A stretch of DNA of 64,000 nt from a virus. A model generated the notes under the pieces. That model had not been told where the DNA came from. It made no database searches and saw nothing but the letters and a program-made list of their open reading frames with translations. Of this stretch, positions 1,996 to 24,927 are shown piece by piece; the stretch's first letter is position 1, and every line of letters begins with the position of its first letter. The stretch is taken from the IMG/VR virus record IMGVR_UViG_3300005841_000001, positions 37,658 to 101,657 of that record; one strand, written 5' to 3'. Both the position numbers and the translations under genes were made by a program.

Positions 1996-2024
1996 AGACT
2001 AGCCGAGCGAACTCGGCTAGTCAA
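1996..2024 (-). promoter_or_regulatory. Operator-promoter repeat
   Basis: TTGACT-AGCCGAGTTCGCTCGGC-TAGTCT. Confidence 0.85.
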
Positions 2025-2031
2025 GCCTCGG

Positions 2032-2703
2032 TCAGGCGCCGGCCTCGCGCGCCTGCGCCGCCTTGATCCGGTAGTCCAGTCGCTCGAGCCGGTTCGACAG
2101 CGCGGTGTAGCGCTCAAGGTCGCGGTCGAGCTGCTCGAAGCGTCGGCGGCCGGCGTTGCGCGCCGCGCGCGACCGCGCGTTCGGCGACAGGTTCACGATC
2201 GCCGGGTCGTCAGAGCCGGCGCCGGTGATCTTGTCCATCCGGGCCTGAACCTTGTCGCGTTCCTCGATCAGCGAGGCCGCCGAGCGGTACGTCTGGGGGC
2301 GGCGCTCACGCTTCGGGGTGGGCTTCTCCTCGGGCACGATCACGAAGTCCTCGTCGCCGGCCCGGATGAACCATTCCAGCAGCGGCGGCAGAGTGCGGTC
2401 GCCGCCGTTGCGGTGGATCCAGGCGGCCTGCCGGGCGAGCAGAACCGCGATGTAGGCGTCGCCGTCGATCGGCTCGGTCAGCGGGGCCGGCTCGGGCACC
2501 TCGACCGGCTCGATCTTCTCGGCGCCGTCCTCGACGAAGTCGCTCATGATCGAGGTGCGCACGACCAGGATCTTGCCCGGCTTGTCCCAGCCGCCGGCGC
2601 CCTCGATCACCTCGACCTCGTAGAAGCCCGCGTTGATCATCTTGATCACGTTGACGGTGGCGCGGAGGGTGGGGCCGCAAGTGACGGTGGCGGTGCCGAT
2701 CAT
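2032..2703 (-). CDS. Hypothetical protein, C-terminal coiled coil
   Basis: AAGGAG RBS and repeat promoter upstream. Confidence 0.75.
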   Translation of the reverse strand: MIGTATVTCGPTLRATVNVIKMINAGFYEVEVIEGAGGWDKPGKILVVRTSIMSDFVEDGAEKIEPVEVPEPAPLTEPIDGDAYIAVLLARQAAWIHRNGGDRTLPPLLEWFIRAGDEDFVIVPEEKPTPKRERRPQTYRSAASLIEERDKVQARMDKITGAGSDDPAIVNLSPNARSRAARNAGRRRFEQLDRDLERYTALSNRLERLDYRIKAAQAREAGA

Positions 2704-2733
2704 GGTGTGCTCCTTGTTCTCGGTGATGACACA

Positions 2734-2762
2734 AGACTAGCCGAGTTTGCTCGGCTAGTCAA
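2734..2762 (-). promoter_or_regulatory. Operator-promoter repeat
   Basis: TTGACT-AGCCGAGCAAACTCGGC-TAGTCT. Confidence 0.85.
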
Positions 2763-2769
2763 GCATCTT

Positions 2770-3018
2770 TCACCAGATCCGGTGCATCCGTCCCCGGGCC
2801 AGGCTCGCGGCCGTCGGCCCGTGCTTCCCGCAGTACGCACGCCCCGACCGGCCGCCCCAGAACGACCAGCCGAGCGGCTGCCCGATCGCGCGGATCAGGT
2901 CGCGCGGGTTGCGCACATCGTTCGGGTAGGTGGCCAGCGCGGCGGGCCGGATCTCGGCGCCGCACTCGCGCGCGCTGCACCGCGCGCCCATGACGACGAA
3001 GTTTTCGATCAAGCTCAT
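2770..3018 (-). CDS. Small Cys/His hypothetical protein
   Basis: CSAREC...CGKH; operonic with upstream gene. Confidence 0.65.
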   Translation of the reverse strand: MSLIENFVVMGARCSARECGAEIRPAALATYPNDVRNPRDLIRAIGQPLGWSFWGGRSGRAYCGKHGPTAASLARGRMHRIW

Positions 3019-3021
3019 GAA

Positions 3022-3624
3022 TCAGGCTCCTCCGGCCGCCGCGCGGGCGTCCTGCTGGTCGGCGAACTCGATGCGCAAGCGCTTCAAGAGGGCCGGGTTG
3101 GTGGCACTCAGGTGCGCCGTGAAGGTGTCGAGCAGCCGCGCGAAGGTGCGCGCGTACCGCATCGTGAACTCGTCGAGGTCGAGCACCTCGTTCTGCCCGG
3201 GGTCGAGCACCAGGGCGGAGGCCTGCCGGCCGAGCGCCTCGACGACGTCGGTGGCGTTCGGGAATCGGCGCGGCAGACCGAACTCGCGGAGCTTCGTGTA
3301 GGTGGCCGAGTCGAGGTCGTTGACCTCCGCCGGGTACAGCTCGGCGGTGCCGTCGTCGGTCAGCGCGACGTGCTTGTAGGCGAAGTGGATACCGACCGAG
3401 CGGTGCGACATGCCGGTCTTGATCAAGCCCTCGTTGAGCAGCTCGGCGAGGTAGGTCGCGCGCGGCTGGGGCACCGCCACGGCCTGTTCGCCGACCTTCT
3501 CGAAGAACTCGTAAGGGTCGGCGCCCGTGCCGACCTTGAGGATCACGTCGGTGACGTCGACGCTGCGCAGCGCGAACTCGCGGCCGGCGGCGACCTGGCT
3601 GGGGGTGAGCGGCTTCGTGGTCAT
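3022..3624 (-). CDS. Hypothetical protein (leaderless)
   Basis: ATG 6 nt after TAGACT. Confidence 0.75.
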   Translation of the reverse strand: MTTKPLTPSQVAAGREFALRSVDVTDVILKVGTGADPYEFFEKVGEQAVAVPQPRATYLAELLNEGLIKTGMSHRSVGIHFAYKHVALTDDGTAELYPAEVNDLDSATYTKLREFGLPRRFPNATDVVEALGRQASALVLDPGQNEVLDLDEFTMRYARTFARLLDTFTAHLSATNPALLKRLRIEFADQQDARAAAGGA

Positions 3625-3630
3625 ACTGCG

Positions 3631-3659
3631 AGTCTAGCCGAGCTTGCTCGGAGAGTCAA
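3631..3659 (-). promoter_or_regulatory. Operator-promoter repeat
   Basis: TTGACT-CTCCGAGCAAGCTCGGC-TAGACT. Confidence 0.85.
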
Positions 3660-4026
3660 GGGTGAAGACGTACACCCGCCGGTCTTCGGGCAAGGCTTCT
3701 TCGCACGCGACCATGGCGCGGAACTTCGCCACGGTGATCGGGCGCGAGGTGGTCTTCTGCGGGGTGTCGCTCGGCGCGTCCTCGACGCTCATGACGTTCA
3801 GGCTGTCGCCCGGCTTGCCCGACACCATGCAGGTTTCCGCCTCGACGTGGTTGATCCGGCCGTTCATCTCCCAGTACACCAGGCCGCCCTCGGTGAACAC
3901 GGGGTAGACGCCGGGCTCGACCAGCACCGTTTCGGCCGCGCCGAGCGTCGAGCCGGGCATCGGGAACACGCGGTTGCGCAGTACTTCGACGGTGCCAACC
4001 TGGACGCGGGTTTCGGTCTTGGGCAT
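3634..4026 (-). CDS. Hypothetical protein
   Basis: AAGGAG RBS; packed operon. Confidence 0.7.
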   Translation of the reverse strand: MPKTETRVQVGTVEVLRNRVFPMPGSTLGAAETVLVEPGVYPVFTEGGLVYWEMNGRINHVEAETCMVSGKPGDSLNVMSVEDAPSDTPQKTTSRPITVAKFRAMVACEEALPEDRRVYVFTLDSPSKLG

Positions 4027-4029
4027 CGG

Positions 4030-4566
4030 TTACTCCTTGGTAGGTTGACGCTGCCAGAGCGGCCGGCGAGCTTGCTCGTCTCGCCACGCGGCGAGTTCTT
4101 CATGGCCTTTGACGGTCGGGACGATGTACATCTCTTCGGTCACCACGAACCCGTTGCGCTGCAACCAGTTCGCGGCGTTCTGCGCAACCTCGCTGAACCG
4201 CGCGGTACCGTCGTCGCCGGAAATCCAGACGTCCTGTCCGGGGCCGGTTCCGGGGAACCACATCAGGATCTCCTGCTCGGCACACAGCAGCGTCTCGAGC
4301 AGCGGCGGCGTCAAGCGGGTGTCGATCACCAGCCCCGAGGCGACCGCGCATCGGAACGCGATTTTCGTTTGCCGCGCGCGAGGACCATGCTCGACGCTCA
4401 CGTAGTACTCGCCAGTGCGAAGGTCGCCGACGCACGGCCCGAGCAACGGCAGGCCGCCGTCTTCGGGCCGGTGGTGACAGAAGTGCGGTACGTGCGCCTT
4501 GTGGAAGCCGTAGTCCGCGCGCTCGGCGGGCGGCCCCCACGTGATGCCGCGCGGCAAGGTGCGCAT
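4030..4566 (-). CDS. Hypothetical protein
   Basis: Packed operon with 3-nt gaps. Confidence 0.65.
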   Translation of the reverse strand: MRTLPRGITWGPPAERADYGFHKAHVPHFCHHRPEDGGLPLLGPCVGDLRTGEYYVSVEHGPRARQTKIAFRCAVASGLVIDTRLTPPLLETLLCAEQEILMWFPGTGPGQDVWISGDDGTARFSEVAQNAANWLQRNGFVVTEEMYIVPTVKGHEELAAWRDEQARRPLWQRQPTKE

Positions 4567-4569
4567 CGG

Positions 4570-4794
4570 CTACAGCTTCGCGATCTCGACGCTGCGGAAC
4601 GAGCCGGCGACGGCGAAGTAGGTGACGTTCGAGTTGACCCGGTCGGTGGGGTCGAACTCGAGGCTCCCGCCTTCCCGGACCGCCCTTTCGGCGCGTGCGC
4701 GGGCGTAGTTGTGCAGATCGCCCCGGATCTTGATCTTGTCCTTCTGTCCGTTGTGGAATGTGACCGTGACCTCGATGATGTTGGTAGGAGTCAT
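4570..4794 (-). CDS. Hypothetical protein (leaderless)
   Basis: ATG 6 nt after TAGTCT. Confidence 0.7.
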   Translation of the reverse strand: MTPTNIIEVTVTFHNGQKDKIKIRGDLHNYARARAERAVREGGSLEFDPTDRVNSNVTYFAVAGSFRSVEIAKL

Positions 4795-4800
4795 TCCACA

Positions 4801-4829
4801 AGACTAGCCGACTTAACTCGGGGAGGCAA
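4801..4829 (-). promoter_or_regulatory. Operator-promoter repeat overlapping terL RBS
   Basis: TTGCCT-CCCCGAGTTAAGTCGGC-TAGTCT; plus strand holds GGGAGG before terL ATG. Confidence 0.75.
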
Positions 4830-4835
4830 GCTCCG

Positions 4836-6311
4836 ATGACGGACTCGCTCACCCGAGACATCGAACGCTGGTGGGGCGCCGAATCCGGCACCGACCTCAC
4901 CCGCGTCGACTTCGACGCCATCGGCTACGAAGTCGCCGGCATCCGGGTCTCGAATGCCGTCGCCGACCTCGACCCCCAGCTCTACGAAGCTCTCGCACTG
5001 CTCGAGCCGCCGGCCCCCCACCCCTGGCGGCGGACCGCGCTCCCGCACCAGGTCGAGGCCGCCGAGGCGACCGAGCCCTACGTCCTGATGTGCGCCGGCC
5101 GCGGCGCCGGCAAGACCTACACCGCGTCGCACACCCTCACCGAATGGATCGAGGAAGAGCCCGGCGACTACGCGATCATCGCGCCCACGTTCGGTGACGC
5201 CGTCAAGATCTGTGCCGAGGGCCCATCCGGGTTTCTCAAGGCCGCCGGCGACCGCGTCGAATCGTTCAACAAGAACGAGTTCATCGTCTACATGACGAAC
5301 GGTTCACGTGTCGTGCTCGCCTCCGCCGACGCCCCTGACCGCGTCCGCGGCTGGAACCTCACCGGCTTCTGGGCCGACGAACTCGCGTCCTGGAAAAAGG
5401 CTGAGATCTGGGACGAGGGCCTCGAGTTTGCGACCCGCATCGGGCGCACCCGCCGCATCATCACCACGACCCCGAAGCGCGGCTCGAAAGTCCTCAAAGA
5501 CCTGCTCAAGCGCGTCGATGCTGAAGACCCTGACGTCAAGCTGGTCCGCGCGTCCACCTCCGCCAACGCCGCCAACCTGTCCGAGACGTTCCTGCGCACG
5601 ATCCAGCAGCGCTACGCCGGCACCACCCTCGGCCGGCAGGAGCTCGACGGCATCCTGCTCGGCGACGTCGAGGGCGCCCTGGTCACCGGCGCCCAGATCG
5701 AGCGGGCTCGCGTCCGGCCCGCCGAGGTTCCGGAGCTGTGGCGGCTGGTCGTCGGCGTAGACCCCGCGGTCACGAACACCTCCGAGAGCGACGAGACCGG
5801 CATCATCGTCGCCGGCATCGGGCCGGCACCCGAGGGCTGGGAACCGCCCGTCGGCCAGCTCGTGCTCGCCGGCGCGCCGCACATCTACCTGCTCGAGGAC
5901 GTGTCCGGCCGGCGGTCGGTCAACGCGTGGGCTAAGCAAGCGCTCATCACCGCTGACGAGTGGGCCGCGGACGCGATCGTCGCGGAAAAGAACCAGGGCT
6001 ACGACCTGGTCGAATCGAACATCCGGCTCAACGCGCTGGTCGACCGGCTCGCCGTGCCGCACGTGCAGCTCGTGCACGCGGCCAAGGGCAAGTTCACCCG
6101 GGCCGAGCCGGTCGGCGCGCTGTTCGAGCAGGGCCGGTTGCACGTCGTCAACACGATGCCCAAGCTCGAGGACCAGTGGACGGAGTGGATCCCGGGCGAC
6201 GGCACCGTGTCCCCCGACCGGCTCGACGCCTCGGTGTGGGCGGTCGTCGGTTTGATGCCGGAGCTCGGGATTGGTGGCTCGGGTGCGGTCAAGATCCTGT
6301 CGGCCGGCTGA
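4836..6311 (+). CDS. terL: Terminase large subunit
   Basis: Q-motif PHQ, Walker A GRGAGKT, Walker B WADE, coupling motif TTTP, RNase H-like GVDPA..DETGI, C-terminal SPDRLDA. Confidence 0.95.
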   Translation: MTDSLTRDIERWWGAESGTDLTRVDFDAIGYEVAGIRVSNAVADLDPQLYEALALLEPPAPHPWRRTALPHQVEAAEATEPYVLMCAGRGAGKTYTASHTLTEWIEEEPGDYAIIAPTFGDAVKICAEGPSGFLKAAGDRVESFNKNEFIVYMTNGSRVVLASADAPDRVRGWNLTGFWADELASWKKAEIWDEGLEFATRIGRTRRIITTTPKRGSKVLKDLLKRVDAEDPDVKLVRASTSANAANLSETFLRTIQQRYAGTTLGRQELDGILLGDVEGALVTGAQIERARVRPAEVPELWRLVVGVDPAVTNTSESDETGIIVAGIGPAPEGWEPPVGQLVLAGAPHIYLLEDVSGRRSVNAWAKQALITADEWAADAIVAEKNQGYDLVESNIRLNALVDRLAVPHVQLVHAAKGKFTRAEPVGALFEQGRLHVVNTMPKLEDQWTEWIPGDGTVSPDRLDASVWAVVGLMPELGIGGSGAVKILSAG

Positions 6312-6430
6312 CCACCCGGGGCGCGGCGCACGACCGCCGTTGCAGCCGCCCCGGGTGGCCGTCTCCGGTCGCCCAGCACCTCGACGGTAGGCCGTCCACG
6401 GTCGTCCACGCCAGGTGGTTTGGACAGCGA

Positions 6431-6664
6431 TCAGCCGTCGAGCGCCTCTTTCCGCTGCGGATCGAACAGCTTGTACAGCCGGTACGGCCGGCCGCCGTTG
6501 AGCTGCGGGCTCGTCTCCCATGTCGGGCCACCGATCGTCTTACCCAGGGCTCGCGCGCAGTTGGCGGCATGTTGGCTCGCCTTGCTGCTGTCGCCGCCGA
6601 ACACGGCGACGTGGGTCGCCTCGCCGGGCTGCCCGTACATGTAGGTTGCGCTCGTGGTGGCCAT
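6431..6664 (-). CDS. Hypothetical protein
   Basis: ATG 6664 lies 6 nt after CACAAT -10-like box; start uncertain (ORF open to 6739). Confidence 0.5.
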   Translation of the reverse strand: MATTSATYMYGQPGEATHVAVFGGDSSKASQHAANCARALGKTIGGPTWETSPQLNGGRPYRLYKLFDPQRKEALDG

Positions 6665-7276
6665 CACGTGATTGTGCACGGATTGTCGCGGATCTGTCCG
6701 GAAGTGTTCGACTTTGTCCAGGCTGCTTGCGCACAACACAACCCTCCGGGTTAGCTGGAGGCACCTCCTTCTCGGAGTTGCTTCCTAGTTTGACGGCTGG
6801 AGCTGCACGACCCCTGTCCCCCGGGACGTTGAGCCATCGCGTTAGCGCGCGGGAACATCCCGGCAGGGCAGGGCTTTTGGTGACTGGTTTGGTTCACTCG
6901 CGGTACCTGTCCGACCGCCCGGCTCTGCACCCCGCGTGGGCGCGCGGAGAGCCCGGCCCACAGATAGGAGAACAGCCCCCGCGTCCGCGTGCACAGCGGA
7001 CCAACGGGGGCCGTTCTGTCGTCTGGGTCCTACCCCCCGGGACTGGCCACGACCAGTAGACGTATCCCCGGTTTCTGCCGCTTGCGCAGAGCGACCGTGC
7101 AACCGGTCCGCGGGCGTTGCTGCGCTCGCCGGCGGTCCGGCGCGGGCCCGCTGCCTTCTCCCCGCCTCAACGGGGCGGTATGCGGGTCCGCGTCGACCAT
7201 TGTACGTTCACGGCGGGCCGTATCCGGAGACGCGCACCGCCGTGCCGGGCACTCGAAGTCCCGGAGACGGGAGATC

Positions 7277-7627
7277 TTAGCCGTCGACGATCTCGCCCAG
7301 TTCCTTCTCGGCTCGCTGGACCAGCGGCAGCATCTCCGTGCACGCTGCGCGGTAGCCGGGCGCTTCGTCACTGTCGTCGCAGCCGTCGATGCCGTTCTCG
7401 GTGTAGTACACCAGCGACGACAGCGCGTCCCAGCCGAGCGCGGTCCGCGGGAACCGCAGCACGATCGAGCCGTCGGGTTTGCGCTCGGCCGCCTTGTAGA
7501 TCCGGCCCAGCTCGACCTCGTCGGGGTACCCTTTGTCCGGCTCGGTGGCCGGCTCCTCCTTGGCGAAGTAGGCGTCCCATCCGGCGGACAGGGTGACCTC
7601 GTAGGTGGGGTCTTCAGTAGTGGTCAT
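7277..7627 (-). CDS. Hypothetical acidic protein
   Basis: AAAGGA RBS; GC3 bias. Confidence 0.7.
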   Translation of the reverse strand: MTTTEDPTYEVTLSAGWDAYFAKEEPATEPDKGYPDEVELGRIYKAAERKPDGSIVLRFPRTALGWDALSSLVYYTENGIDGCDDSDEAPGYRAACTEMLPLVQRAEKELGEIVDG

Positions 7628-7640
7628 AGGACTGTCCTTT

Positions 7641-7805: not shown

Positions 7806-7807
7806 GG

Positions 7808-9613: not shown

Positions 9614-9619
9614 GCGTCA

Positions 9620-9648
9620 AGACTAGCCGAGATCACCCGGCTACACAA
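9620..9648 (-). promoter_or_regulatory. Operator-promoter repeat
   Basis: TTGTGT-AGCCGGGTGATCTCGGC-TAGTCT. Confidence 0.75.
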
Positions 9649-10067: not shown

Positions 10068-10076
10068 TCGCTGAGC

Positions 10077-10802: not shown

Positions 10803-10831
10803 AGTCTAGCCGAGCTAACTCGGAGCGTCAA
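10803..10831 (-). promoter_or_regulatory. Operator-promoter repeat
   Basis: TTGACG-CTCCGAGTTAGCTCGGC-TAGACT. Confidence 0.85.
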
Positions 10832-12191: not shown

Positions 12192-12246
12192 CGGCTCTCC
12201 CTCGGGACGGGACAGGGGCCGCCGTCCACGATGGACAGCGGCCCCT

Positions 12247-12594: not shown

Positions 12595-12623
12595 AATCTA
12601 GCCGACTCAACGCGGAGCGTCAA
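12595..12623 (-). promoter_or_regulatory. Operator-promoter repeat
   Basis: TTGACG-CTCCGCGTTGAGTCGGC-TAGATT. Confidence 0.75.
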
Positions 12624-14314: not shown

Positions 14315-15069
14315 GGCTCCCCACCCTCCAATTTGGTCAGTCCGATATCGGCCCGTCGGCCGGCTAGGTTTCCGTCGATGGCTCCGTAGTCGAACATCGT
14401 CGGTGGCTGGTAGTCGACCTTGTTGATGTCCGGGAACCGTTTGTTGTAGTAGTCCTCGGCGTCCTGGTCTCGGGTACGCAAGGCCAGCTCGGTTGATGGT
14501 CCCGCAGGCAGCACATGCTCCTCGTCGCGCTCTTGCTGCACCTCGGCCGCGGTGCGCTGCTCGATCTGGTCGAGCCGGATCCCGACTGCTTGGGAGTACG
14601 CGGCGTACCAGTTGCGGGCGTAGCGCTGGTAGAGCGTTTCGGTGATGAAGTCGCGGCCGGCGGCGTCGGTGGCGAGCCCATTCTGCGCCACGACCGACAG
14701 CGTTTCGAAGAGCATTTCGACGCGGTCGATGTCCACCGGTGCGCCCATCACGAGGGCACCCGAGGGCACACGGTTGCGTTTGTGGCGCAGGTGTACCGAG
14801 CGGCAGTGCACCGCGGCCGCGATGTGCGCGATCAAGACGATCTTCTCTTGCGCGAACGGCGCCTGGACAGTGATCACGCGTTCGGTGACGCCGTCGAGTC
14901 CGCGCGCGTCGTCGAGGTCTTGGGGCTGGATCGCGTGGCGCGCCATCACTTCTGCCGCATGGGACGCGTAGATCCGGGCCTCGGCTTCGGTGGCCGCCGG
15001 GTCGCGGGCCTTCGCGAGCAGACTGTTGATCGTCGCGATCCGCTTTTCGCGGGTCGGCTTCTTGGGCAT
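14284..15069 (-). CDS. DUF2786 domain protein
   Basis: KRIATINSLLAKARDPAATEAEARIYASHAAEVMARHAI matches the DUF2786 pattern; leaderless start at 15069. Confidence 0.8.
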   Translation of the reverse strand: MPKKPTREKRIATINSLLAKARDPAATEAEARIYASHAAEVMARHAIQPQDLDDARGLDGVTERVITVQAPFAQEKIVLIAHIAAAVHCRSVHLRHKRNRVPSGALVMGAPVDIDRVEMLFETLSVVAQNGLATDAAGRDFITETLYQRYARNWYAAYSQAVGIRLDQIEQRTAAEVQQERDEEHVLPAGPSTELALRTRDQDAEDYYNKRFPDINKVDYQPPTMFDYGAIDGNLAGRRADIGLTKLEGGEPWDSSKIWTP

Positions 15070-15076
15070 GAGGGCT

Positions 15077-15105
15077 ATGCTAGCCGACTTAACTCGGTTC
15101 GTAAA
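15077..15105 (-). promoter_or_regulatory. Operator-promoter repeat (leftward of divergent pair)
   Basis: TTTACG-AACCGAGTTAAGTCGGC-TAGCAT. Confidence 0.75.
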
Positions 15106-15120: not shown

Positions 15121-15149
15121 GACCCGCTCCGAGTAAGCCCGGCTAGGAT
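15121..15149 (+). promoter_or_regulatory. Operator-promoter repeat (rightward of divergent pair, weak -35)
   Basis: GACCCG-CTCCGAGTAAGCCCGGC-TAGGAT. Confidence 0.6.
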
Positions 15150-15934: not shown

Positions 15935-15963
15935 TTGTCGAGCCGAGTAAACTCGGCTAGACT
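15935..15963 (+). promoter_or_regulatory. Operator-promoter repeat
   Basis: TTGTCG-AGCCGAGTAAACTCGGC-TAGACT. Confidence 0.85.
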
Positions 15964-15995: not shown

Positions 15996-16655
15996 GTGGA
16001 GAGCAGGAACACCCGCGCTCAGTGGGCCGACGACGTTCCCGACCTGTACGGGGAGAGCCTCGCCAAGGCCGGCGATTACCTCACCATCGCGCAGGTCAGC
16101 AACCTGACGTCGCTGTCGCCGAACACGCTCAGGGACGCACTCAGCCGGCCCCCGGTGACGCGCAAGGACAACCCGATGTTCGCGCTGTCGCGCCCGGCCG
16201 CCCGCATCGCCAACCAGCCGCTCTACTCCCCCGAGCAGGTCGAGCAGGCGAAGAAGATCCAGAAGGACACCGGCCACCGCCACCTCGGCGGCGGCACCGA
16301 GGCTCTCGAGGTCGTCTCGCCCCAGGAAGCCGAACGGGCGGGGCTCGTCTCGATCGTCGAGTTCAAGGACTTCGCCGGCGTGCACGAGCAGACCGTGCGC
16401 CGGTGGGCCCGTGAGCAGGAGTCGTTCCCGCAGCCGGTCGCCCTGCGTTCGCGCTCGGGCGGCGAGCAGGACGGTGCCCGGGTGCACCCCGGCGTGCCGA
16501 TCGTGATGTACGAGTTCGACGCCGCGAAGAAGTGGCTGCGCAACTACATCGAGACCGGCACCGGCAAGCGCGTCGAGCGGATCGCGGAACACATGCGCGC
16601 CGCGCACGACTGGAAGATCCGGGCCGGTTCCCGAGCGGAAGCGATCAGCGCGTAA
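15996..16655 (+). CDS. DNA-binding protein with two MerR/AlpA-like HTH units
   Basis: YLTIAQVSNLTSLSPNTLRD...PLYSPEQV and LVSIVEFKDFAGVHEQTVRRW...FPQP; AAAGGAGG RBS. Confidence 0.7.
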   Translation: MESRNTRAQWADDVPDLYGESLAKAGDYLTIAQVSNLTSLSPNTLRDALSRPPVTRKDNPMFALSRPAARIANQPLYSPEQVEQAKKIQKDTGHRHLGGGTEALEVVSPQEAERAGLVSIVEFKDFAGVHEQTVRRWAREQESFPQPVALRSRSGGEQDGARVHPGVPIVMYEFDAAKKWLRNYIETGTGKRVERIAEHMRAAHDWKIRAGSRAEAISA

Positions 16656-17566: not shown

Positions 17567-17595
17567 CCTTTGCGGCGTGTCGAGGCGGAGTCCTC

Positions 17596-17628
17596 TTGTC
17601 AGGCTAGTCTAGCCGAGCTACCGTGGTG
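17596..17628. promoter_or_regulatory. Overlapping divergent promoters with operator half-sites
   Basis: Plus: TTGTCA-N17-TACCGT; minus: CTCGGC-TAGACT; contains GGCTAGTCTAGCC palindrome. Confidence 0.6.
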
Positions 17629-17667
17629 AGGTTCCGACCCGGCCATCACCCGGAAAGGGCAAGACTC

Positions 17668-17937: not shown

Positions 17938-18164
17938 GCAACCGGCGCACCCTCAAGCTCGAGGCGAAGCCGATCTTGGACTCGCGTGCGTTCATCGGGA
18001 TGGCCAGTCGGCACGGCCAGTTCGTCTGCACCTGTGGACACCCGGCCGGTCACCTGCACCCCGAGGACGCGATCACCTGCGTGGGCGTCATGGCGGCCGA
18101 GCTCACGGTGGACGTCCGCAAGGCCTTGACGCGCCTAGCTAACTCGGCTAGTCTCGCAGGATGA
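17934..18164 (+). CDS. Small Cys/His hypothetical protein
   Basis: GTGA overlap; CTCGHPAGHLH. Confidence 0.6.
   Translation: MSNRRTLKLEAKPILDSRAFIGMASRHGQFVCTCGHPAGHLHPEDAITCVGVMAAELTVDVRKALTRLANSASLAG
18126..18154 (+). promoter_or_regulatory. Operator-promoter repeat
   Basis: TTGACG-CGCCTAGCTAACTCGGC-TAGTCT. Confidence 0.8.
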
Positions 18165-18628: not shown

Positions 18629-18924
18629 TGCAGGCGATTCCGACACCCGAGGTGCCGGCGGAGCTCGACCCGGTGCTGAATCGGCCCGAGGTCGGCGAGC
18701 CCTGCTACGTGATCGGCAGGCCGTCCGTCGACGCGCGACTGGTCGAACTGGCCGGCCCGATGGGCGCCGAGTGGACGCATGGCACCGCGACGCTCACCTG
18801 GACCGTTCCGGGCGAGTCCGCGCCGCGTCTGCGATGCTTCCGCGCGAGCCTCGTCACGTCGTCGCTGAAGGTCGCTACGACGCCGGCGCTCGAGCTCCGG
18901 CGGTACGGCTGGAACCTCCCCTAA
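18628..18924 (+). CDS. Hypothetical protein
   Basis: TGATG overlap; start MQAIPTP. Confidence 0.6.
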   Translation: MQAIPTPEVPAELDPVLNRPEVGEPCYVIGRPSVDARLVELAGPMGAEWTHGTATLTWTVPGESAPRLRCFRASLVTSSLKVATTPALELRRYGWNLP

Positions 18925-18931
18925 ACAGCTG

Positions 18932-18960
18932 TTGACAAGCCGAGTAAACACGGCTAGTTT
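18932..18960 (+). promoter_or_regulatory. Operator-promoter repeat driving RNA cluster
   Basis: TTGACA-AGCCGAGTAAACACGGC-TAGTTT. Confidence 0.85.
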
Positions 18961-19008
18961 CGAAGACGTCGGGCCTCGGACCCTCCCCCCTCGCCGGGGC
19001 CCGCGTAC

Positions 19009-19080
19009 GGCGCACTGGTCCAGCGGAACGGACACCCGGTTCTCACCCGGGAGACTCGAGTTCGACTCTCGGGTGCGCTA
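19009..19080 (+). tRNA. tRNA-Glu(CTC)
   Basis: Acceptor GGCGCAC/GTGCGCT, D arm GTCC..GGAC, anticodon arm CCCGG-TTCTCAC-CCGGG, T arm TCGAG-TTCGACT-CTCGG; no encoded CCA. Confidence 0.9.
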
Positions 19081-19251
19081 CGCAAGTGATCCCCGGTCAA
19101 GCGTGTCGGACTGCAAACTTCGGGGCAGGCCGACTGCGGGATTGGATCACAGGACGGGAGAAATACCGGGCAGAGCTCCCGCCCTTACCCTGGTGCGGTC
19201 TGGACCACCGCCTCTAACGACCAGGGCTCGACAGTCAGCGGGAACGGTCCA

Positions 19252-19339
19252 GGCGAGAAGCCCGGGCGCTGGTGGGTGGACCCACCCCCCTAGTGCGACC
19301 GGCGGTTCAATTCCGCACGGCGCCCGGCTTCTCGCCCCA
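19252..19339 (+). ncRNA. tRNA-like RNA with extended acceptor stem, T-loop and 3' CCA
   Basis: GGCGAGAAGCC-C-GGGCGC pairs with GCGCCC-GGCTTCTCGCC; GCGG-TTCAATT-CCGC T arm; CCA follows stem. Confidence 0.5.
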
Positions 19340-19652
19340 CAATTTCGAGTTCCGAGGATGATCACCGCTGACCGGCCTCATCAACCGGAAAGTGCCGGGC
19401 GCAAGCCAGGGCAGGGACTCACGTAAACCCCCCGGCGCCCGGCCGGGTTGAGAACGAACCGGGCGCGCCGTGGTGATGAGCCCGGCGCAGGCTGGCAGCA
19501 TCCCAGGAAACGGGCGTGGTGCCGTCGGCCAGGAACTACATGACCCGGCGTGCGGCATGCACACCGACGCCTCCGACGCCCCGAGACGTCAGCCTCGGCC
19601 GCCAGGCCCCGGGTCCGGTTCCGTCCCGCATTGACACGAGGAGGAGATCACG

Positions 19653-19808
19653 ATGTCCGCACCCGACAAGGGGGCCGCCAAGGACGGCAGCTCGCTCGCC
19701 GAGACCGTCTCGAAGAACCTCGAGGCGAGGGGCGTGCACGGCGCCACCGGCAACACCCGGACCAACGCCACCGGCACGCGGAACACTGCCGGCAACCCCC
19801 GTCGGTAG
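19653..19808 (+). CDS. 51-aa hydrophilic micro-protein (not in ORF track)
   Basis: GAGGAGGAG RBS; MSAPDKGAAKDGSSLAETVSKNLEARG... Confidence 0.6.
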   Translation: MSAPDKGAAKDGSSLAETVSKNLEARGVHGATGNTRTNATGTRNTAGNPRR

Positions 19809-19914
19809 AACCCAGGACTCCCGGGCGCGGCTATCGGACGGAGCTGCCCCTGCGGCTCTGGCCGGCGTCCCGATCGCCGGCGGGTTGCGACCTTCCAGGG
19901 CGGCCCGGGAAACG

Positions 19915-19948
19915 AAAGCCCCCACGGCGAGCACCGTGGGGGCTTTCT
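19915..19948 (+). terminator. Intrinsic terminator
   Basis: GAAAGCCCCCACGG-CGAGCA-CCGTGGGGGCTTTC. Confidence 0.75.
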
Positions 19949-19980
19949 CATGCCGCTGAAATGTCAACGTTGTCGGGAGT

Positions 19981-20009
19981 GTTCGTTGCCGAGCCACGTC
20001 GGTTAGTCT
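19981..20009 (+). promoter_or_regulatory. Degenerate operator-promoter repeat
   Basis: GTTCGT-TGCCGAGCCACGTCGGT-TAGTCT then 6 nt to GTG. Confidence 0.6.
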
Positions 20010-20015
20010 CATCCG

Positions 20016-20285
20016 GTGAACCACTGGCTACCGTGGTTGCTCGCGATGGGCAACCTTTCGTCGATCTTTCTCACCGGCCGCGGCAAGCTCGCCGGCTTCG
20101 TTGTGTTGGTGCCTACGCAGCTCGTGTTCGCGGGCTACGCCGCCTACACAGATCAACTCGGGTTTGTGCTACAGGGAGTAGCAATGGCGTCCATGGCGGG
20201 CGTCGGTTGGTATAAATGGGTGAACGATGGCGTCCATCGGGATGGCCGCCAACCCCGTGAAAAAGTATCGCCGGCAACCGAGTAG
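20016..20285 (+). CDS. Small three-TM protein, PnuC-like
   Basis: Three hydrophobic helices ending GWYKW, as recalled for small phage PnuC-like proteins. Confidence 0.55.
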   Translation: MNHWLPWLLAMGNLSSIFLTGRGKLAGFVVLVPTQLVFAGYAAYTDQLGFVLQGVAMASMAGVGWYKWVNDGVHRDGRQPREKVSPATE

Positions 20286-20443
20286 TTCCGGCTTGACAAA
20301 CCCCTGGTCATACTGGAGCGGGGACCCCGGCTTGGTGATGGCAGGCCGGGGTTCCCTTATGCGCCGGCCGGGGGCTGGGGCGGTGCTCCAGCGTGATCGT
20401 ATCGGCGTACGGGTCGTTCAACGAGCAGGCTCACCGAAAGGTG

Positions 20444-20472
20444 TTGACGCTCCGAGCTAACTCGGCTAGTCT
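20444..20472 (+). promoter_or_regulatory. Operator-promoter repeat
   Basis: TTGACG-CTCCGAGCTAACTCGGC-TAGTCT. Confidence 0.85.
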
Positions 20473-20498
20473 AGGGTTATCCGAATGAGGAGGACCCC

Positions 20499-20732
20499 AT
20501 GGCCAGGATCAAGACTCCCGCCGGAAGTCGCCGGGGTAGCCCGCGAGTGGGCGACGTTGTGCTCATCGCTCATCTGGACGGTTCGGGTTACACCCGCACC
20601 CTGGTCACCCGCGTCGCCGTGCGACAGGTCAAGATCGGCGATTTCGTCAGCGAGCGCTACGCGATTGACACGGCCGCGTTCGGTTTCGACGGATACCGCT
20701 CCCGGGGTGACTTCTACCTCCTTGCGGCATGA
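20499..20732 (+). CDS. Hypothetical protein
   Basis: GAGGAGG RBS. Confidence 0.7.
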   Translation: MARIKTPAGSRRGSPRVGDVVLIAHLDGSGYTRTLVTRVAVRQVKIGDFVSERYAIDTAAFGFDGYRSRGDFYLLAA

Positions 20733-21022
20733 CCGATCTCCCCTTGCTTCCCACCACGATCACCCGGCTCCACGAAGCGATGGAGCCTGGGTTTGTCCGG
20801 GTGCCGGAAATCGCGCCCGGTTGGTTCGTGATCGGTCCGGAACGCGCGGTGGTCCCCGGTTACCCGTGCCGCGTCTACCGCTGGACCACGCACGACTACG
20901 TCACGGTCGAACTGGACCGGCTCGTGGCCGCGCGGGTCGTCGAGCACAAACCAGGCAGTCGGTACGGGACCGGTCGGCAACGCTACGTACTCGCCTCGAT
21001 CAAGATCAGCAAGAAAAGCTGA
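20729..21022 (+). CDS. Hypothetical protein
   Basis: ATGA overlap. Confidence 0.65.
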   Translation: MTDLPLLPTTITRLHEAMEPGFVRVPEIAPGWFVIGPERAVVPGYPCRVYRWTTHDYVTVELDRLVAARVVEHKPGSRYGTGRQRYVLASIKISKKS

Positions 21023-21035
21023 GAGGAAGATCATC

Positions 21036-21458
21036 ATGGGTTACGACACCAAGATCTACGGCGAGATCACGATCACGCCGCCGCTGCCCTACGGCAAGAT
21101 CAAAAACTCGCCGTTCCGCTCGATCAGCCGCGAGGACACAACGCTCATGTTCGACGAGGACTCGCATGTCGAGGACACCGAAGAGGGCACGCTGAGCAAG
21201 ACCAGCGCGGTCGGGATCAAGATCCGTTACGACGAGACCGGCCGGCACTACGGGATCGACACCGAACTGACCAAGATCGTCGACGCCTTCCCGGACCACG
21301 AGTTCGAGGGCAGTTTCGTCTCCGTGGGCGCGGACCCCGGCGACATCCGTCGCGTGCGCGTCGAGCGGGTCGCCGGCCCTGGCCGCGGGATGAGCCGCCG
21401 CGTGGTCGAGGAGAAGGCAGAGCTGCACTGGCCGGACGGCACCAAGGTCGAGTTCTAG
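21036..21458 (+). CDS. Hypothetical protein
   Basis: GAGGAAG RBS; MGYDTKIYGEITITPPL. Confidence 0.75.
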   Translation: MGYDTKIYGEITITPPLPYGKIKNSPFRSISREDTTLMFDEDSHVEDTEEGTLSKTSAVGIKIRYDETGRHYGIDTELTKIVDAFPDHEFEGSFVSVGADPGDIRRVRVERVAGPGRGMSRRVVEEKAELHWPDGTKVEF

Positions 21459-21559
21459 GTCCGTCGTCGACGTTCTAGGCCCCCATGACGTCGCACCCCC
21501 CACGGTTGTTCGGGCTACCAGCCAGTATTCACCCGTTTGGGGGGGTGTGGGATTCAGGC

Positions 21560-21588
21560 TAGACAAGCCGAGTTAACTCGGCTAGACT
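21560..21588 (+). promoter_or_regulatory. Operator-promoter repeat (perfect palindrome)
   Basis: TAGACA-AGCCGAGTTAACTCGGC-TAGACT. Confidence 0.85.
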
Positions 21589-21594
21589 AGGTTC

Positions 21595-22314
21595 ATGACC
21601 GAGACGCAGAAGCCCCTCGCCCAGCAGACGCCCCGCGAGATCGACGAGCAGCTGGCCACCTTGGACGGCGCCTACCTCGCGATGTCCGACAAGCGCAAGG
21701 CCAAGATCGAGTTCGCCCACAGCCTCAACGGCGAGCGCGCCCGCTACGTCGGCCGCCGCCGCAAGGAGTGGCCGACCACCACCGACGAGGTGCTAGAGCA
21801 GCTGGCCCTCAAGCTGGCCGACGAGAAGATTCCGGCCTACGACGTCGCCAAGGTCACCGAGCTGATCGAGACCGTCGACGGTCTGGCTCGCGAGATGCGC
21901 GCCAACCGCGAGGCCTGCGAACCGCTGGACGCCGAGTACGACCGCCGCCACTGGGCCCGGTTCTTCCAGGTCGAGGACGGACACATCCACTCCGGGATGC
22001 GTTGCCAGGGCGGTTCGATCCGGGTCACCACTCGCGTGGGGTGGCGGCCCGAGCTGTCCGACAAGGACGTGACCGAGGCCGTCGCCGCCCTTGGGCCGAC
22101 GCTGTGCACGAAGTGCTTCCCCTCGGCGCCGGTCGAGTACACCCGGGGCCCGGAGAAGAAGCTGACGCCGGGCTACTGCGGCGGCCAGGGCAAGCTGGGC
22201 GTCGAGCTCCAGATGCGGTACGCGAGCCCGCGCGGGAAGTGCCCGGACTGCGGGCAGCGCGTCGGCGTGACGAGCCTCGGGAAGGTGCGCCGGCACAAGC
22301 TGCCCACCGCGTGA
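21595..22314 (+). CDS. Hypothetical Zn-binding protein (leaderless)
   Basis: GHIHSGMRC, LCTKCFPSAP, CPDC motifs. Confidence 0.75.
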   Translation: MTETQKPLAQQTPREIDEQLATLDGAYLAMSDKRKAKIEFAHSLNGERARYVGRRRKEWPTTTDEVLEQLALKLADEKIPAYDVAKVTELIETVDGLAREMRANREACEPLDAEYDRRHWARFFQVEDGHIHSGMRCQGGSIRVTTRVGWRPELSDKDVTEAVAALGPTLCTKCFPSAPVEYTRGPEKKLTPGYCGGQGKLGVELQMRYASPRGKCPDCGQRVGVTSLGKVRRHKLPTA

Positions 22315-22321
22315 CCGACCG

Positions 22322-22353
22322 CTCAGGATCCCCTCAAATGAGGGGATTCTGAG
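22322..22353 (+). terminator. Terminator-like hairpin
   Basis: CTCAGGATCCCCTCA-AA-TGAGGGGATTCTGAG. Confidence 0.6.
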
Positions 22354-22354
22354 C

Positions 22355-22383
22355 TTGCGTAGCCGAGCTAACTCGGCTAGACT
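22355..22383 (+). promoter_or_regulatory. Operator-promoter repeat
   Basis: TTGCGT-AGCCGAGCTAACTCGGC-TAGACT. Confidence 0.85.
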
Positions 22384-22389
22384 CGACTC

Positions 22390-22599
22390 ATGGTCCAGAT
22401 CAGTGAGTACGGCGAGCACCCGGTCTTCAGCACGAAGTGCATCCCCTGCGGGCGCTCGATCGGGCTGTGTCGGAACGAGGACGGCGAACCGGTGTACGTG
22501 GACGACCTCGGTCGCACGCTTTGCCCGGACCCGGAGCAGGACGGCGAACTGTTCATCCACGAGCCGACCAACCACGTGTTCCCCCGCGACTTGGTCTAG
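22390..22599 (+). CDS. Small Cys/His protein (leaderless)
   Basis: CIPCG...C...HEP. Confidence 0.7.
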   Translation: MVQISEYGEHPVFSTKCIPCGRSIGLCRNEDGEPVYVDDLGRTLCPDPEQDGELFIHEPTNHVFPRDLV

Positions 22600-22684
22600 A
22601 CCATGCCTGTTCGAATCCACTGCGCGACCTGCGGGGGCGACCCTCACGCAGGCCCGTGCCGACGCACCGGAGGAGGTGCCCACG

Positions 22685-22927
22685 ATGAAGATCGATTTCG
22701 ATTGGCTGGAGTTCGCGCTGTGCCGGGGCGCCGACCCGGGGCTGTTCGACGCGCTCGACGGCACGCGCGACCAGGCCCGCGCCCTCGGCATCTGTGCCGA
22801 GTGCCCGGTCCGTTCCGAGTGCCTCGGCGCCGCGCTGCTCGAGGGCGACGACACGACCGTGCGTGGCGGCCTCACCCCGGAGCAGCGGCGCATAATCCGC
22901 CGGCGCGCCCATGTGCGTGCGGCTTGA
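22685..22927 (+). CDS. WhiB-family Fe-S transcription factor
   Basis: W..ALCRGADPGLF...ICAECPVRSECL...TVRGGLTPEQRR; four Cys; GGAGG RBS. Confidence 0.9.
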   Translation: MKIDFDWLEFALCRGADPGLFDALDGTRDQARALGICAECPVRSECLGAALLEGDDTTVRGGLTPEQRRIIRRRAHVRAA

Positions 22928-22988
22928 CCTCGAGCCGGCCGGCCCCGCACCTGGCCGGCTCGAGCTGCTCCCCCCGAGAGAAGGCTTC

Positions 22989-23270
22989 ATGATCAACGTC
23001 CGGAGGTTGTTGTTGCGTCCCCGTCTGCCCGAGCCCGAGATCCCTGGTGCGCACTCCGCCACCCCCGACCGACCGGCCGGCTTCCGCTGGCTCGCCGGCA
23101 TCGCCCTGAAGGGCCAGGATGTCGCCTCGTTCTTCGTGCCTTTCTCGTGGCTGCTGCACCGCTCTGACAACGTGCTGCTTCGCCGGCAGGAGCAGCTTCA
23201 CCGCGCCACCGCCTACGGCGTTGTGCCGGCGGAGCTCGCTGCTTCGGTGGTCTCTGCTCCGATCGAGTGA
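22989..23270 (+). CDS. Hypothetical protein
   Basis: GAAGG RBS; start MINVRR. Confidence 0.55.
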   Translation: MINVRRLLLRPRLPEPEIPGAHSATPDRPAGFRWLAGIALKGQDVASFFVPFSWLLHRSDNVLLRRQEQLHRATAYGVVPAELAASVVSAPIE

Positions 23271-23275
23271 CAAGC

Positions 23276-23304
23276 TAGACAAGCCGAGACAGTTCGGCTA
23301 GTCT
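23276..23304 (+). promoter_or_regulatory. Operator-promoter repeat
   Basis: TAGACA-AGCCGAGACAGTTCGGC-TAGTCT. Confidence 0.8.
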
Positions 23305-23333
23305 AGCTTTATCACCGAGACGAGGAGCCCGAG

Positions 23334-23786
23334 ATGATCACCGCGACCTACACCACTCCCGAGATCAAGTTCGCCGACTTCGCCGACTACAACCCCGGCC
23401 ACGGCACCGAGACCGTACGGGAGACCGTCCTCGGTCTGCGGGACGAGTACGCCGCGACCAAGATCAAGACGGTCACTACGCCGGTCGGGCACCAGTTCAT
23501 CGTCACCGGCCCGATCGTCGACATCGCCCGGCTGGCCGCGCTGTACAACCAGCGCATCGACGGCAGCACGCTCCCCACCGCCGAGCACTACGAGCACATG
23601 CGCACCGTCGAGGCCCGGCAGCTCGGCTGCTGGCTCGACGAGGGCATGTACGCCCGGGGCAGTGCGCTGCACGTCGCCGCTATGGACGAGCTGCACCTGC
23701 GCGCCCTGGACGAGGACGTCGAGCGTTGCCACGGCTGGGCGCTGGAGGACTACACCGTCGGCAAGAGCGTCTTCCCGGTCCGCTGA
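23334..23786 (+). CDS. Hypothetical protein
   Basis: GAGGAG RBS; own promoter; hairpin terminator at 23801-23830. Confidence 0.75.
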   Translation: MITATYTTPEIKFADFADYNPGHGTETVRETVLGLRDEYAATKIKTVTTPVGHQFIVTGPIVDIARLAALYNQRIDGSTLPTAEHYEHMRTVEARQLGCWLDEGMYARGSALHVAAMDELHLRALDEDVERCHGWALEDYTVGKSVFPVR

Positions 23787-23861
23787 CCTGGGCAAACGCC
23801 AGCCCCGCCCCACCTCCCCGGGGCGGGGCTTGCTCCGTTCGAGTGAAGCCGCCGTGGGGGC

Positions 23862-23890
23862 TTGTCTAGCCGAGCCTGCTCGGCTAGTCT
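23862..23890 (+). promoter_or_regulatory. Operator-promoter repeat
   Basis: TTGTCT-AGCCGAGCCTGCTCGGC-TAGTCT. Confidence 0.85.
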
Positions 23891-23933
23891 AGGTACATCA
23901 CCACGGAGCACCACCCGAGACCCGGAGGCCAGG

Positions 23934-24215
23934 ATGACCACCACGACCACCGCCCAGCACCGTTCCGCCGGCGCCCTCGCCACCGGCCAGATCGCCGACG
24001 ACATGATCCTGATCCACCACGCGGCCGTCACCTACGGCTACGACGACATGGCGCAGGACTACCTCAACCGGTACGACGACGCGATCGCCTACCTGCACAC
24101 GGACGCCACCCTCGACGCCCAGATCGCCGGGATCAAGCTCACCCTCGCCGGCCCCGCCGCGGGCCGCTGCCCGAGCCACGGCTACTACCCGCAGGGCCGC
24201 TGCGGGATCTGCTGA
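23934..24215 (+). CDS. Hypothetical protein with C-terminal CPSH..CGIC
   Basis: GGAGG RBS; hairpin at 24222-24250 downstream. Confidence 0.7.
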   Translation: MTTTTTAQHRSAGALATGQIADDMILIHHAAVTYGYDDMAQDYLNRYDDAIAYLHTDATLDAQIAGIKLTLAGPAAGRCPSHGYYPQGRCGIC

Positions 24216-24272
24216 CCACCTCGAGGCCCCGCCCACCGGGCGGGGCCTCGGCCGCTCTTCGAGGAGGACACC

Positions 24273-24494
24273 GTGAACCTGCGCAAGTGGATCAAGGAAT
24301 TCCGCGAGGACTGGGCCGCCGCCGGTGAGGCCCTCGACCGGGCGGAGCGCGCCCGTGCGCGGCGTCGCGCGGCCGCGCCCCGGCCGCCCCAGGACGCCAC
24401 CGCGGCCGCCGCTGGGGGTCTCGCCGCGGCCGCCGGGGCGCAGGCTGCGCAGGCCGCCGCTTGCCCGCCGGACGCGGGTTGCACTGGGGCTTGA
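24273..24494 (+). CDS. Hypothetical Ala-rich protein
   Basis: GAGGAGG RBS; stop TGA is inside next -35 TTGACG. Confidence 0.6.
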   Translation: MNLRKWIKEFREDWAAAGEALDRAERARARRRAAAPRPPQDATAAAAGGLAAAAGAQAAQAAACPPDAGCTGA

Positions 24495-24519
24495 CGCTCC
24501 GAGCTAACTCGGCTAGACT
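24491..24519 (+). promoter_or_regulatory. Operator-promoter repeat
   Basis: TTGACG-CTCCGAGCTAACTCGGC-TAGACT. Confidence 0.85.
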
Positions 24520-24548
24520 AGGTCTCACACCGAGCAGGGAGGCACCCC

Positions 24549-24902
24549 GTGGACATCACCGCCGCGATCACCGAGTTCCGCAAGCACAACGCCGCCCTCC
24601 GGCGGATCGAGCAGCGCACCGGCACCCGCGTCGCCGCCGGGAACTGGACCGTCAGCCCGCGCACCCGCGCCGCCGTCGCCCGCCACCGCGACGCCATCGA
24701 CGACGTCCGGACCGCGCTCGACCTCGCCGGGCACCGCTACCTCGTGGCCACGCTGGTGATCGAGGCGCAGGAGCGCAGCAACCTCGCGTGGGCACGCCGC
24801 GAGCGCCTCGCGTACGAGGTGGCCCGCCTGACCCCGGCGATCGCGGCCGAGGGCAAGCGCGTCCGGGCCTACGTCCAGAACCACACCCCCGCCGCGGCTT
24901 GA
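24549..24902 (+). CDS. Hypothetical protein
   Basis: GGGAGG RBS; stop inside next -35. Confidence 0.7.
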   Translation: MDITAAITEFRKHNAALRRIEQRTGTRVAAGNWTVSPRTRAAVARHRDAIDDVRTALDLAGHRYLVATLVIEAQERSNLAWARRERLAYEVARLTPAIAAEGKRVRAYVQNHTPAAA

Positions 24903-24927
24903 CGCTCCGAGCTAACTCGGCTAGACT
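24899..24927 (+). promoter_or_regulatory. Operator-promoter repeat (identical to 24491-24519)
   Basis: TTGACG-CTCCGAGCTAACTCGGC-TAGACT. Confidence 0.85.

Follow-up and report, generated by a model that had tools for sequence, protein, structure and literature searches.

A repeated 29-bp promoter-type element with a conserved spacer dyad, a plausible operator, in an uncultured 101-kb virus genome

The virus record IMGVR_UViG_3300005841_000001 of the IMG/VR database comprises 101,657 bp with 68% G+C and direct terminal repeats, and was rated complete by CheckV. The stretch of DNA analysed in this study, here called the window, is the last 64 kb of this record, and all coordinates are window positions unless marked as genome positions. 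A tailed phage is indicated by portal, capsid, protease and terminase genes, and at genome positions 8-64 kb almost no gene has a family match. Between positions 1996 and 24927 of the window, a 29-bp element consisting of TTGAC (-35), a 17-nt spacer and TAG(A/T)CT (-10) is repeated many times, and its spacer holds a palindromic sequence (the dyad). The virus would be an uncultured actinobacterial phage, with most of its non-structural genes under this shared set of promoters.

The repeated element and its copies

Sites were scored against the 29-bp consensus of a first-pass annotation of the window, allowing up to three mismatches over the 21 specified positions, and 100 dinucleotide-preserving shuffles served as background. 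The 25 matches in the window collapsed to 19 distinct sites, because some sites also match in reverse; the mean for the shuffles was 0.00. All 23 coordinates of the first-pass annotation hold the element it described, 19 of them with 0-3 mismatches and one (15077) with four. Three copies had been called degenerate, which is correct for 15121 and 19981 (no -35, dyad and -10 kept), whereas 17596 reads better as a scrambled, overlapping divergent pair. The extent of about 23 copies is valid for the window, but the array continues beyond it: a position-weight scan of the whole genome added six strong leftward copies and one weak copy at genome positions 12.7-35.9 kb, which gave 26 strong copies genome-wide. 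As had been proposed, each copy has the orientation of the gene downstream of it and the spacer length is fixed, at 17 nt in all 26 strong sites.

The copies in the window are given below, together with one gene discussed later. A GGAGG-type ribosome-binding site (Shine-Dalgarno) is abbreviated SD, and ORF stands for open reading frame.

1996..2024, minus strand: copy with 0 mismatches, leaderless ATG 7 nt past the -10; same 29-mer at the orthologous place in L179
2734..2762, minus strand: copy with 0 mismatches, 30-nt SD leader (consensus scan)
3631..3659, minus strand: copy with 0 mismatches, leaderless ATG (consensus scan)
4801..4829, minus strand: copy with 2 mismatches and a leaderless ATG, placed back to back with the start of terL (consensus scan)
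9620..9648, minus strand: copy with 3 mismatches, leaderless ATG (consensus scan)
10803..10831, minus strand: copy with 0 mismatches, leaderless ATG; orthologue in L102
12247..12275, minus strand: copy with 1 mismatch, ORF 55 nt downstream, hairpin at the 5' end of the predicted transcript (consensus scan)
12595..12623, minus strand: copy with 3 mismatches, 35-nt SD leader; orthologue in L148
13444..13472, minus strand: copy with 1 mismatch, -35 of TAGAC, structured leader of about 100 nt (consensus scan)
15077..15105, minus strand: weaker copy with 4 mismatches (TTTACG, TAGCAT), ATG 8 nt past the -10 starting a DUF2786 gene
15121..15149, plus strand: degenerate copy with 6 mismatches, dyad (1 mismatch) and TAGGAT without a -35; faces away from 15077
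15935..15963, plus strand: copy with 1 mismatch, perfect 7-bp arms, 32-nt SD leader into the candidate regulator gene
15996..16655, plus strand: gene of the candidate operator-binding protein P0001, 219 aa, with two predicted winged helix-turn-helix (wHTH) domains, the N-terminal one MerR-like, the other of Xis/BldC type
17596..17624, no single strand: scrambled element with 11 mismatches; the plus strand reads TTGTCA-17-TACCGT, the minus strand the right arm and TAGACT
18126..18154, plus strand: copy with 1 mismatch, leaderless ATG (consensus scan)
18932..18960, plus strand: copy with 2 mismatches, heading a tRNA-Glu and a mostly non-coding stretch (consensus scan)
19981..20009, plus strand: degenerate copy with 6 mismatches, dyad (1 mismatch) and TAGTCT without a -35; GTG 7 nt past the -10
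20444..20472, plus strand: copy with 0 mismatches, 26-nt SD leader (consensus scan)
21560..21588, plus strand: copy with 0 mismatches, leaderless ATG; orthologue in L104
22355..22383, plus strand: copy with 2 mismatches, leaderless ATG, upstream of a WhiB-like gene (22676-22927)
23276..23304, plus strand: copy with 1 mismatch, 29-nt SD leader (consensus scan)
23862..23890, plus strand: copy with 1 mismatch, leader of about 43 nt (consensus scan)
24491..24519, plus strand: copy with 0 mismatches, 29-nt SD leader (consensus scan)
24899..24927, plus strand: copy with 0 mismatches, 30-nt SD leader (consensus scan)

At 17596, the minus-strand TAGACT lies 39 nt before a YdjM-like gene, and the minus-strand reading of the site is at least as good as that of the plus strand. 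A decayed copy was also observed in the tail-gene region (53593-53621, minus strand), just upstream of a gene for 1112 aa at 53727-57062. A relative has an intact copy at the place of this decayed one (L115:3741-3769), with an ATG 7 nt past the -10. These tail-region copies point against the tail genes, and could belong to a small inserted gene or act as an antisense promoter.

Promoter features and the genes downstream

Exact matches to TTGACN-N16-18-TANNNT numbered 16 in the genome, compared with 1.1 expected from shuffles, and all 16 belong to the set, with the 17-nt spacer and the dyad. In 11 of the 26 strong sites an ATG begins exactly 6 nt after the -10 hexamer, its A being the seventh nucleotide, and one more site has an ATG at 7 nt; the chance of at least 11 ATGs at the exact spacing is about 3e-11. 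This position of the ATG indicates leaderless mRNAs. Leaders of 26-35 nt with an SD were found at 10 strong sites, and the seventh base after the -10 is an A in 20 of the 26. In transcription start site maps of Streptomyces coelicolor, the -10 is TANNNT, the -35 is NTGACC, 21% of mRNAs are leaderless and AUG is preferred (PMC4895711).

The earlier assignment of TTGACN-17-TAGNNT to the actinobacterial principal-sigma promoter is borne out by the 16 of 16 exact consensus matches that fall in the set, by the spacing of the ATG and by the free interior of the TANNNT box in relatives. The 29-bp elements are thus strongly supported as principal-sigma (SigA/HrdB, group 1) promoters of the actinobacterial type, and would be expected to be active as such. 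No match to the Sigma70_r2 or r4_2 domains was obtained in a six-frame search of the phage, and no phage RNA polymerase was present among the proteins scanned, in a genome where many genes have no recognisable family. A reader of the motif encoded by the phage itself, whether sigma factor or polymerase, was not found in these domain and protein scans. In the proposed mechanism, the host principal sigma factor (SigA/HrdB type) would read the elements as early/middle promoters, and transcription would start at the A 7 nt past the -10. About half of the strong copies would then give leaderless mRNAs beginning at the ATG.

Strong copies precede some 42 genes in the window, in agreement with the approximately 45 genes previously placed under the array, and some 82 non-structural genes in the genome as a whole. 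They include replication genes: primase-polymerase, helicases and exonucleases belong to the controlled class, as does the WhiB-like gene. Copies are absent from the structural arm, from the FtsK/TraB-type (conjugation-type) module and from the plus-strand islands within the leftward arm, namely terL, an Ig-like TIG-domain gene and a four-gene island. From this distribution, the motif is the mark of a single class of expression, which would most simply be the early/middle class.

An RNA cluster had also been assigned to the array. One canonical tRNA-Glu (19009-19080) is indeed present behind promoter 18932. The remainder consists of a single tRNA-like element at about 19264-19335, with a good T-arm and scores below the Rfam thresholds of the mascRNA and tRNA-Sec models, of three further low-confidence tRNA calls made by ARAGORN at a lowered threshold in 18900-20050, and of non-coding sequence, as about 600-700 nt behind this promoter (18961-19660) are mostly non-coding. 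ARAGORN also reported a 92-nt tRNA-Gln at 14535-14626, inside a well-supported minus-strand gene; this call is probably false, because Rfam gives no confirmation.

Structure was observed at the start of some predicted transcripts. The predicted transcript of promoter 12247 opens, at its +1, with a perfect 15-bp stem with a 3-nt loop (12214-12246, minus strand); the ORF follows 55 nt from there, and the stem may be a 5' stabiliser or an attenuator. Behind promoter 13444, the segment 13262-13443 (minus strand) contains the leader of about 100 nt, which is strongly structured (the 182 nt give -67 kcal/mol), followed by an ORF of 25 aa. Elsewhere in the window, a single ORF of 2957 aa extends over 37013-45886. 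Its start is a prohead-protease-like domain, in which the first approximately 180 aa are 46% identical to capsid maturation proteases of actinophages, and a strong AT skew was observed across its length.

The spacer dyad, its conservation and its possible binder

The core of the dyad is CCGAG-N4-CTCGG (5+4+5), located at about -27 to -14 in every copy, with the centres of the arms 9 bp apart. According to the per-position information, constraint on the arms equals that on the two boxes: no variation occurs at positions 9-10 and 19-26, whereas positions 6-8, 14-17 and 27 vary. The right arm, beside the -10, is better conserved than the left. The palindrome originally described, AGCCGAG-N4-CTCGGCT, is real as a dyad, but only its 5+4+5 core is conserved, the 7-bp arm being present on the left in 10 of the 26 strong sites. 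Across the seven arm pairs of 26 own and 20 relative sites, no compensated double change was observed and single-arm changes are tolerated. Selection thus acts on the sequence of each arm, as in readout by a protein, and not on pairing. A literal text match of the right-arm sequence in the literature returned only unrelated primers.

Relatives were sought in several ways. A nucleotide search of the phage collection gave no cultured relative at the nucleotide level, and queries of IMG/VR with the replication genes gave no relatives. The capsid relatives L080-L083 lack the motif, in loci that span structural regions only. When the dyad plus -10 was used as search pattern, about 16 soil-metagenome contigs were recovered that carry the element in full, with a correctly spaced TTGAC, together with ATG starts. 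They are 67-81% identical to this phage at the DNA level where alignable, with flanking proteins 45-65% identical and some flanks unrelated; this set of close relatives is biased, the arms themselves having been part of the search pattern. One orthologous promoter pair shares an identical 29-mer, with an identity of only about 65% in the flanks. The contig L179 is syntenic: it has four promoter copies and retains terL and a 223-aa gene, and 10 of the 11 genes behind the promoters have no counterpart here. Between terL and the 223-aa gene (L179:1133-4200 compared with window 2770-4794), the promoter copies are kept and the small genes are unrelated. Since the copies are kept and the genes swapped, the element looks like a joint for cassette exchange. 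In two further loci (L220:7453 and L230:6799), a copy lies directly upstream of an array of CGAGACG repeats, and the same repeat is found around the traB 3' end in this phage.

In IMG/VR, a strict pattern gave one unrelated match, and a relaxed pattern (-35 and dyad, nothing after) found relatives. Three fragments (G001-G003; 16-49% complete) carry eight, at least five and two copies, and their portal, TraB-type, helicase and other proteins are 40-70% identical to those of this phage. They keep TTGAC-N3-CCGAG-N4-CTCGG-N1 and the 17-nt spacer, with the inner three bases of the -10 differing from site to site. The -10 is therefore a true TANNNT box, and the dyad is conserved for its own sake and not as an extension of the -10. 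The palindrome had been said to run into the -10, which it does in the present lineage, but the relatives keep the dyad with other -10 boxes. In six IMG/VR loci of G+C 0.70-0.71 (L239-L244), a repeated promoter of the same layout has TTGACAC, a different conserved spacer sequence and a TAANGT -10, with some leaderless ATG starts. Kinship to these is thin, one neighbouring protein having a homologue at 26-35% identity; their different spacer sequence fits lineage-specific operators.

Among the phage proteins, P0001 was retained as a candidate for binding the dyad. It has MerR, MerR_1 and HTH_17 Pfam matches at two places, all below the curated cut-offs, and matches a PHROG DNA-binding family. 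Besides its own copy, 55 metagenomic homologues (33-84% identity) were found, in which the second recognition helix is invariant. An AlphaFold model (pLDDT 87.6) has two winged HTH domains. Residues 27-95 superimpose on MerR-family DNA-binding domains (BrlR, MtaN, TipAL, BmrR, CarH, SoxR) with Z of 5-6.2 and root-mean-square deviations of 2.1-2.8 A over 57-60 residues, and residues 116-186 match Xis/BldC-type domains with Z of about 5. The MerR family is known to bind dyads that lie within promoter spacers. On these circumstantial grounds, which include a predicted structure, P0001 would be the best candidate. A comparison by sequence of three HTH candidates with PDB chains gave nothing useful.

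Other regulators were considered. One protein of the scanned batch, most likely that of the 246-aa gene at 30888-31628, matches GntR/UTRA; it is unlikely to be the binder, as the region directly upstream holds different dyads. These ACTGGT...ACCAGT-type dyads lie in the divergent region (30774-30887) between a DUF2637 gene and the 30888-31628 gene, and would form a circuit of their own, of plasmid style, regulating the TraB-type module. A 217-aa protein encoded beside a large non-coding island is helical and conserved in relatives, with no evident HTH. About 30 nt before the ATG of this gene, which borders the 1-kb island, an operator-like site was observed just left of the window (genome positions 37549-37577; L087:18549-18577), with one mismatch in the left arm, a perfect right arm, then TAGCCA, and without a -35.

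With moderate confidence, we favour the reading in which the spacer dyad of these promoters is the operator of one protein, likely encoded by the phage, with P0001 as the best candidate. A sequence-specific protein bound to CCGAG-N4-CTCGG would compete with RNA polymerase, and would turn the whole class of promoters down together. The position of the site, at about -27 to -14 of a promoter of host consensus, is best read as that of a polymerase-excluding operator, and a role as repressor operator is plausible. The binder would most likely be phage-encoded; as P0001 is transcribed from copy 15935, it would also limit its own synthesis. A single dimeric repressor occluding every promoter had been suggested before. 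The site has properties that suit this idea (a dyad conserved apart from the -10, no compensation, a location at -27 to -14), with P0001 as a candidate for the binder. Less firmly, we infer the repression itself, the identity of the binder, and a use either in timed shut-off during the lytic cycle or in silencing of a carrier state. The original framing in terms of a lysogen finds no support in the gene content: searches of the phage gave no tyrosine or serine integrase, no HTH_3 (CI/Cro-type) repressor and no sigma factor, and the scanned proteins included none for partition. Lysogeny and a timed, self-limiting shut-off of the early genes are therefore equally likely.

Several points weigh against this operator reading. 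Both 5-bp arms are perfect in only 12 of the 26 strong sites, and the bias towards the right arm could reflect contact with RNA polymerase. No principal-sigma consensus promoter without the dyad exists in the genome, so the dyad may be needed for activity. The structural Z-scores of P0001 are middling, and its family was not found in IMG/VR, in any other locus examined, or in the dyad-bearing fragments G001-G003, which are 16-49% complete. The binder might also be a host protein, to which a small probability is given below.

The alternatives differ in what they make of these observations. Positive or architectural control, in which the dyad is needed for firing and a factor recruits or remodels RNA polymerase in the manner of MerR, or the polymerase itself reads part of the dyad (an extended -10 or spacer contact), is considered unlikely. 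It keeps weight because no consensus promoter lacks the dyad and the arm beside the -10 is the best conserved, T19-G26 being invariant, and the N-terminal domain of P0001 is MerR-like, MerR being a family with operators in promoter spacers. However, the boxes and their 17-nt spacing are already at host consensus, and thus no helper should be needed. MerR-style activation is itself unlikely because it needs spacers of 19-20 nt and all spacers here, in own and related sites, have 17 nt. No polymerase contact is known at the position of the left arm (-27 to -23), and the more distant phages have the same boxes with a different spacer sequence. This last feature also argues against a host protein as the binder, by which the early genes would be tied to a host regulator, for example one reporting growth state or stress. 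Such a host operator would explain why the dyad is unchanged between phages whose proteins share only 40-70% identity, and why no clear classical repressor was found in the phage. Among 185,579 species representatives (596 Gb), however, only chance-level single copies of the dyad plus -10 were found, with a pattern stricter than a host operator requires, and a host regulon sharing this pattern was rejected on that result. The phage moreover encodes conserved HTH proteins under these promoters, and we regard a host-encoded binder as quite unlikely.

The remaining explanations do without a binding protein. The spacer could lack a function of its own if the copies stemmed from the recent spread of one cassette, whether through duplication, through gene conversion or through recombination at the borders of genes. 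The 29-mers at 20444, 24491 and 24899 are indeed identical or nearly so, and the swapping of genes between promoters among relatives, as in L179, fits recombination at the elements. Identical copies, however, have unrelated flanks, the variation is position-specific (N3, the N4 centre and position 27 differ, the arms do not), and the arms are kept where -10 interiors and genes have diverged, which makes recent spread improbable. A hairpin of RNA or single-stranded DNA, which would terminate or insulate against read-through transcripts or be a site of processing, is highly improbable: a G+C-rich stem of 5-7 bp with a 4-nt loop is possible at these gene boundaries, but the 46 sites contain no compensated change and tolerate changes in a single arm, and on this ground the hairpin or terminator role was ruled out. 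In addition, no U-tract or T-run follows the element, which lies upstream of the predicted start, and separate, longer hairpins precede several copies.

Significance and comparison with known systems

The principle is not new, since phage regulons with many operators and operators between -35 and -10 are textbook knowledge. What is particular here is the complete uniformity: about 26 consensus promoters have one operator-type dyad each, and no consensus promoter lacks it. Also particular are the conservation over a diverged family of uncultured phages, the exchange of cassettes behind the element and, possibly, a single-chain binder with two wHTH domains. The array provides a regulon map for an uncultured 101-kb phage in which almost all early genes are orphans, as it gives the starts of units, leaderless mRNAs and membership of the early class. 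Should the dyad be an operator, about 80 genes would be switched by one protein-DNA pair, and this pair and the promoter set would be useful as orthogonal parts for high-GC actinomycetes. The retention of the promoter-operator unit while genes swap makes a clear case for regulatory sequences as joints of phage mosaicism. In its fullest form, which is rather unlikely, the proposal would be that in a family of large soil actinophages one single-chain protein, its MerR-type and Xis/BldC-type wHTH domains forming a pseudo-dimer in the 17-nt spacer of promoters otherwise at host consensus, controls almost all non-structural genes (about 80, in about 26 units), with the element also serving as recombination joint. 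If true, the double-wHTH reading would represent a compact unit of regulation and mosaic evolution in phages that have plasmid-type transfer genes and no integrase.

Repeated motifs have been described in other actinophages. Gordonia phage Vardy has five copies of a 50-bp motif with a -10 box and an apparent leaderless start (PMC9671010), and resembles the present phage in that a promoter motif recurs between genes and puts the apparent start on the start codon; it differs in having only five copies and no described spacer dyad. Cluster O mycobacteriophages carry more than 30 copies of a 17-bp dyad repeat, most of which are not associated with promoters according to the authors (PMC4351075). 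The common features are many short dyads, presumed sites of a dimeric protein, in phages without integrase, but the Cluster O repeats are mostly off promoters and the dyads described here are linked to them. The stoperators of Cluster A phages such as L5 and Bxb1 (PMC4351075) are likewise repressor sites present by the dozen throughout the genome and oriented with transcription. Unlike the symmetric dyads of this study, which are always inside a promoter, they are asymmetric, 13-14 bp long and mostly off promoters, and they block elongation.

Lambdoid and 434-type phages have, at PR and PL, dyad operators overlapping the -35/-10 region, where repressor and polymerase compete, as proposed here. 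Those operators are few and confined to one immunity region, whereas the present phage has one such dyad per promoter, about 26 in all, and the search for a CI/Cro-type (HTH_3) protein was negative. The MerR family (SoxR, CueR, TipAL) offers a dyad centred in the spacer, and the candidate P0001 has a predicted winged HTH resembling this type; however, the spacer here is 17 and not 19-20 nt, and P0001 has two different predicted wHTH domains and no recognisable effector domain. In the Streptomyces phage phiC31, too, early promoters are numerous and nearly identical, and an inverted repeat that acts as operator recurs between genes. Its early promoters are not known to match the principal-sigma consensus, its repeats are bound by the c repressor, and it is temperate and integrating.

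The C1 repressor of phage P1 acts at 22 dispersed operators (PMC8546580). In both phages one site is repeated about 20-30 times over a genome of about 100 kb and serves many separate lytic units, and P1 is non-integrating; no integrase was found in the phage studied here. The operators of P1 are 17 bp long, asymmetric and not within one uniform promoter, in contrast to a dyad at a fixed place in the spacer of near-identical promoters, and no relatives of C1, Coi or Lxc were seen in the phage. C1 of P1 is the nearest precedent for silencing in a non-integrating phage.

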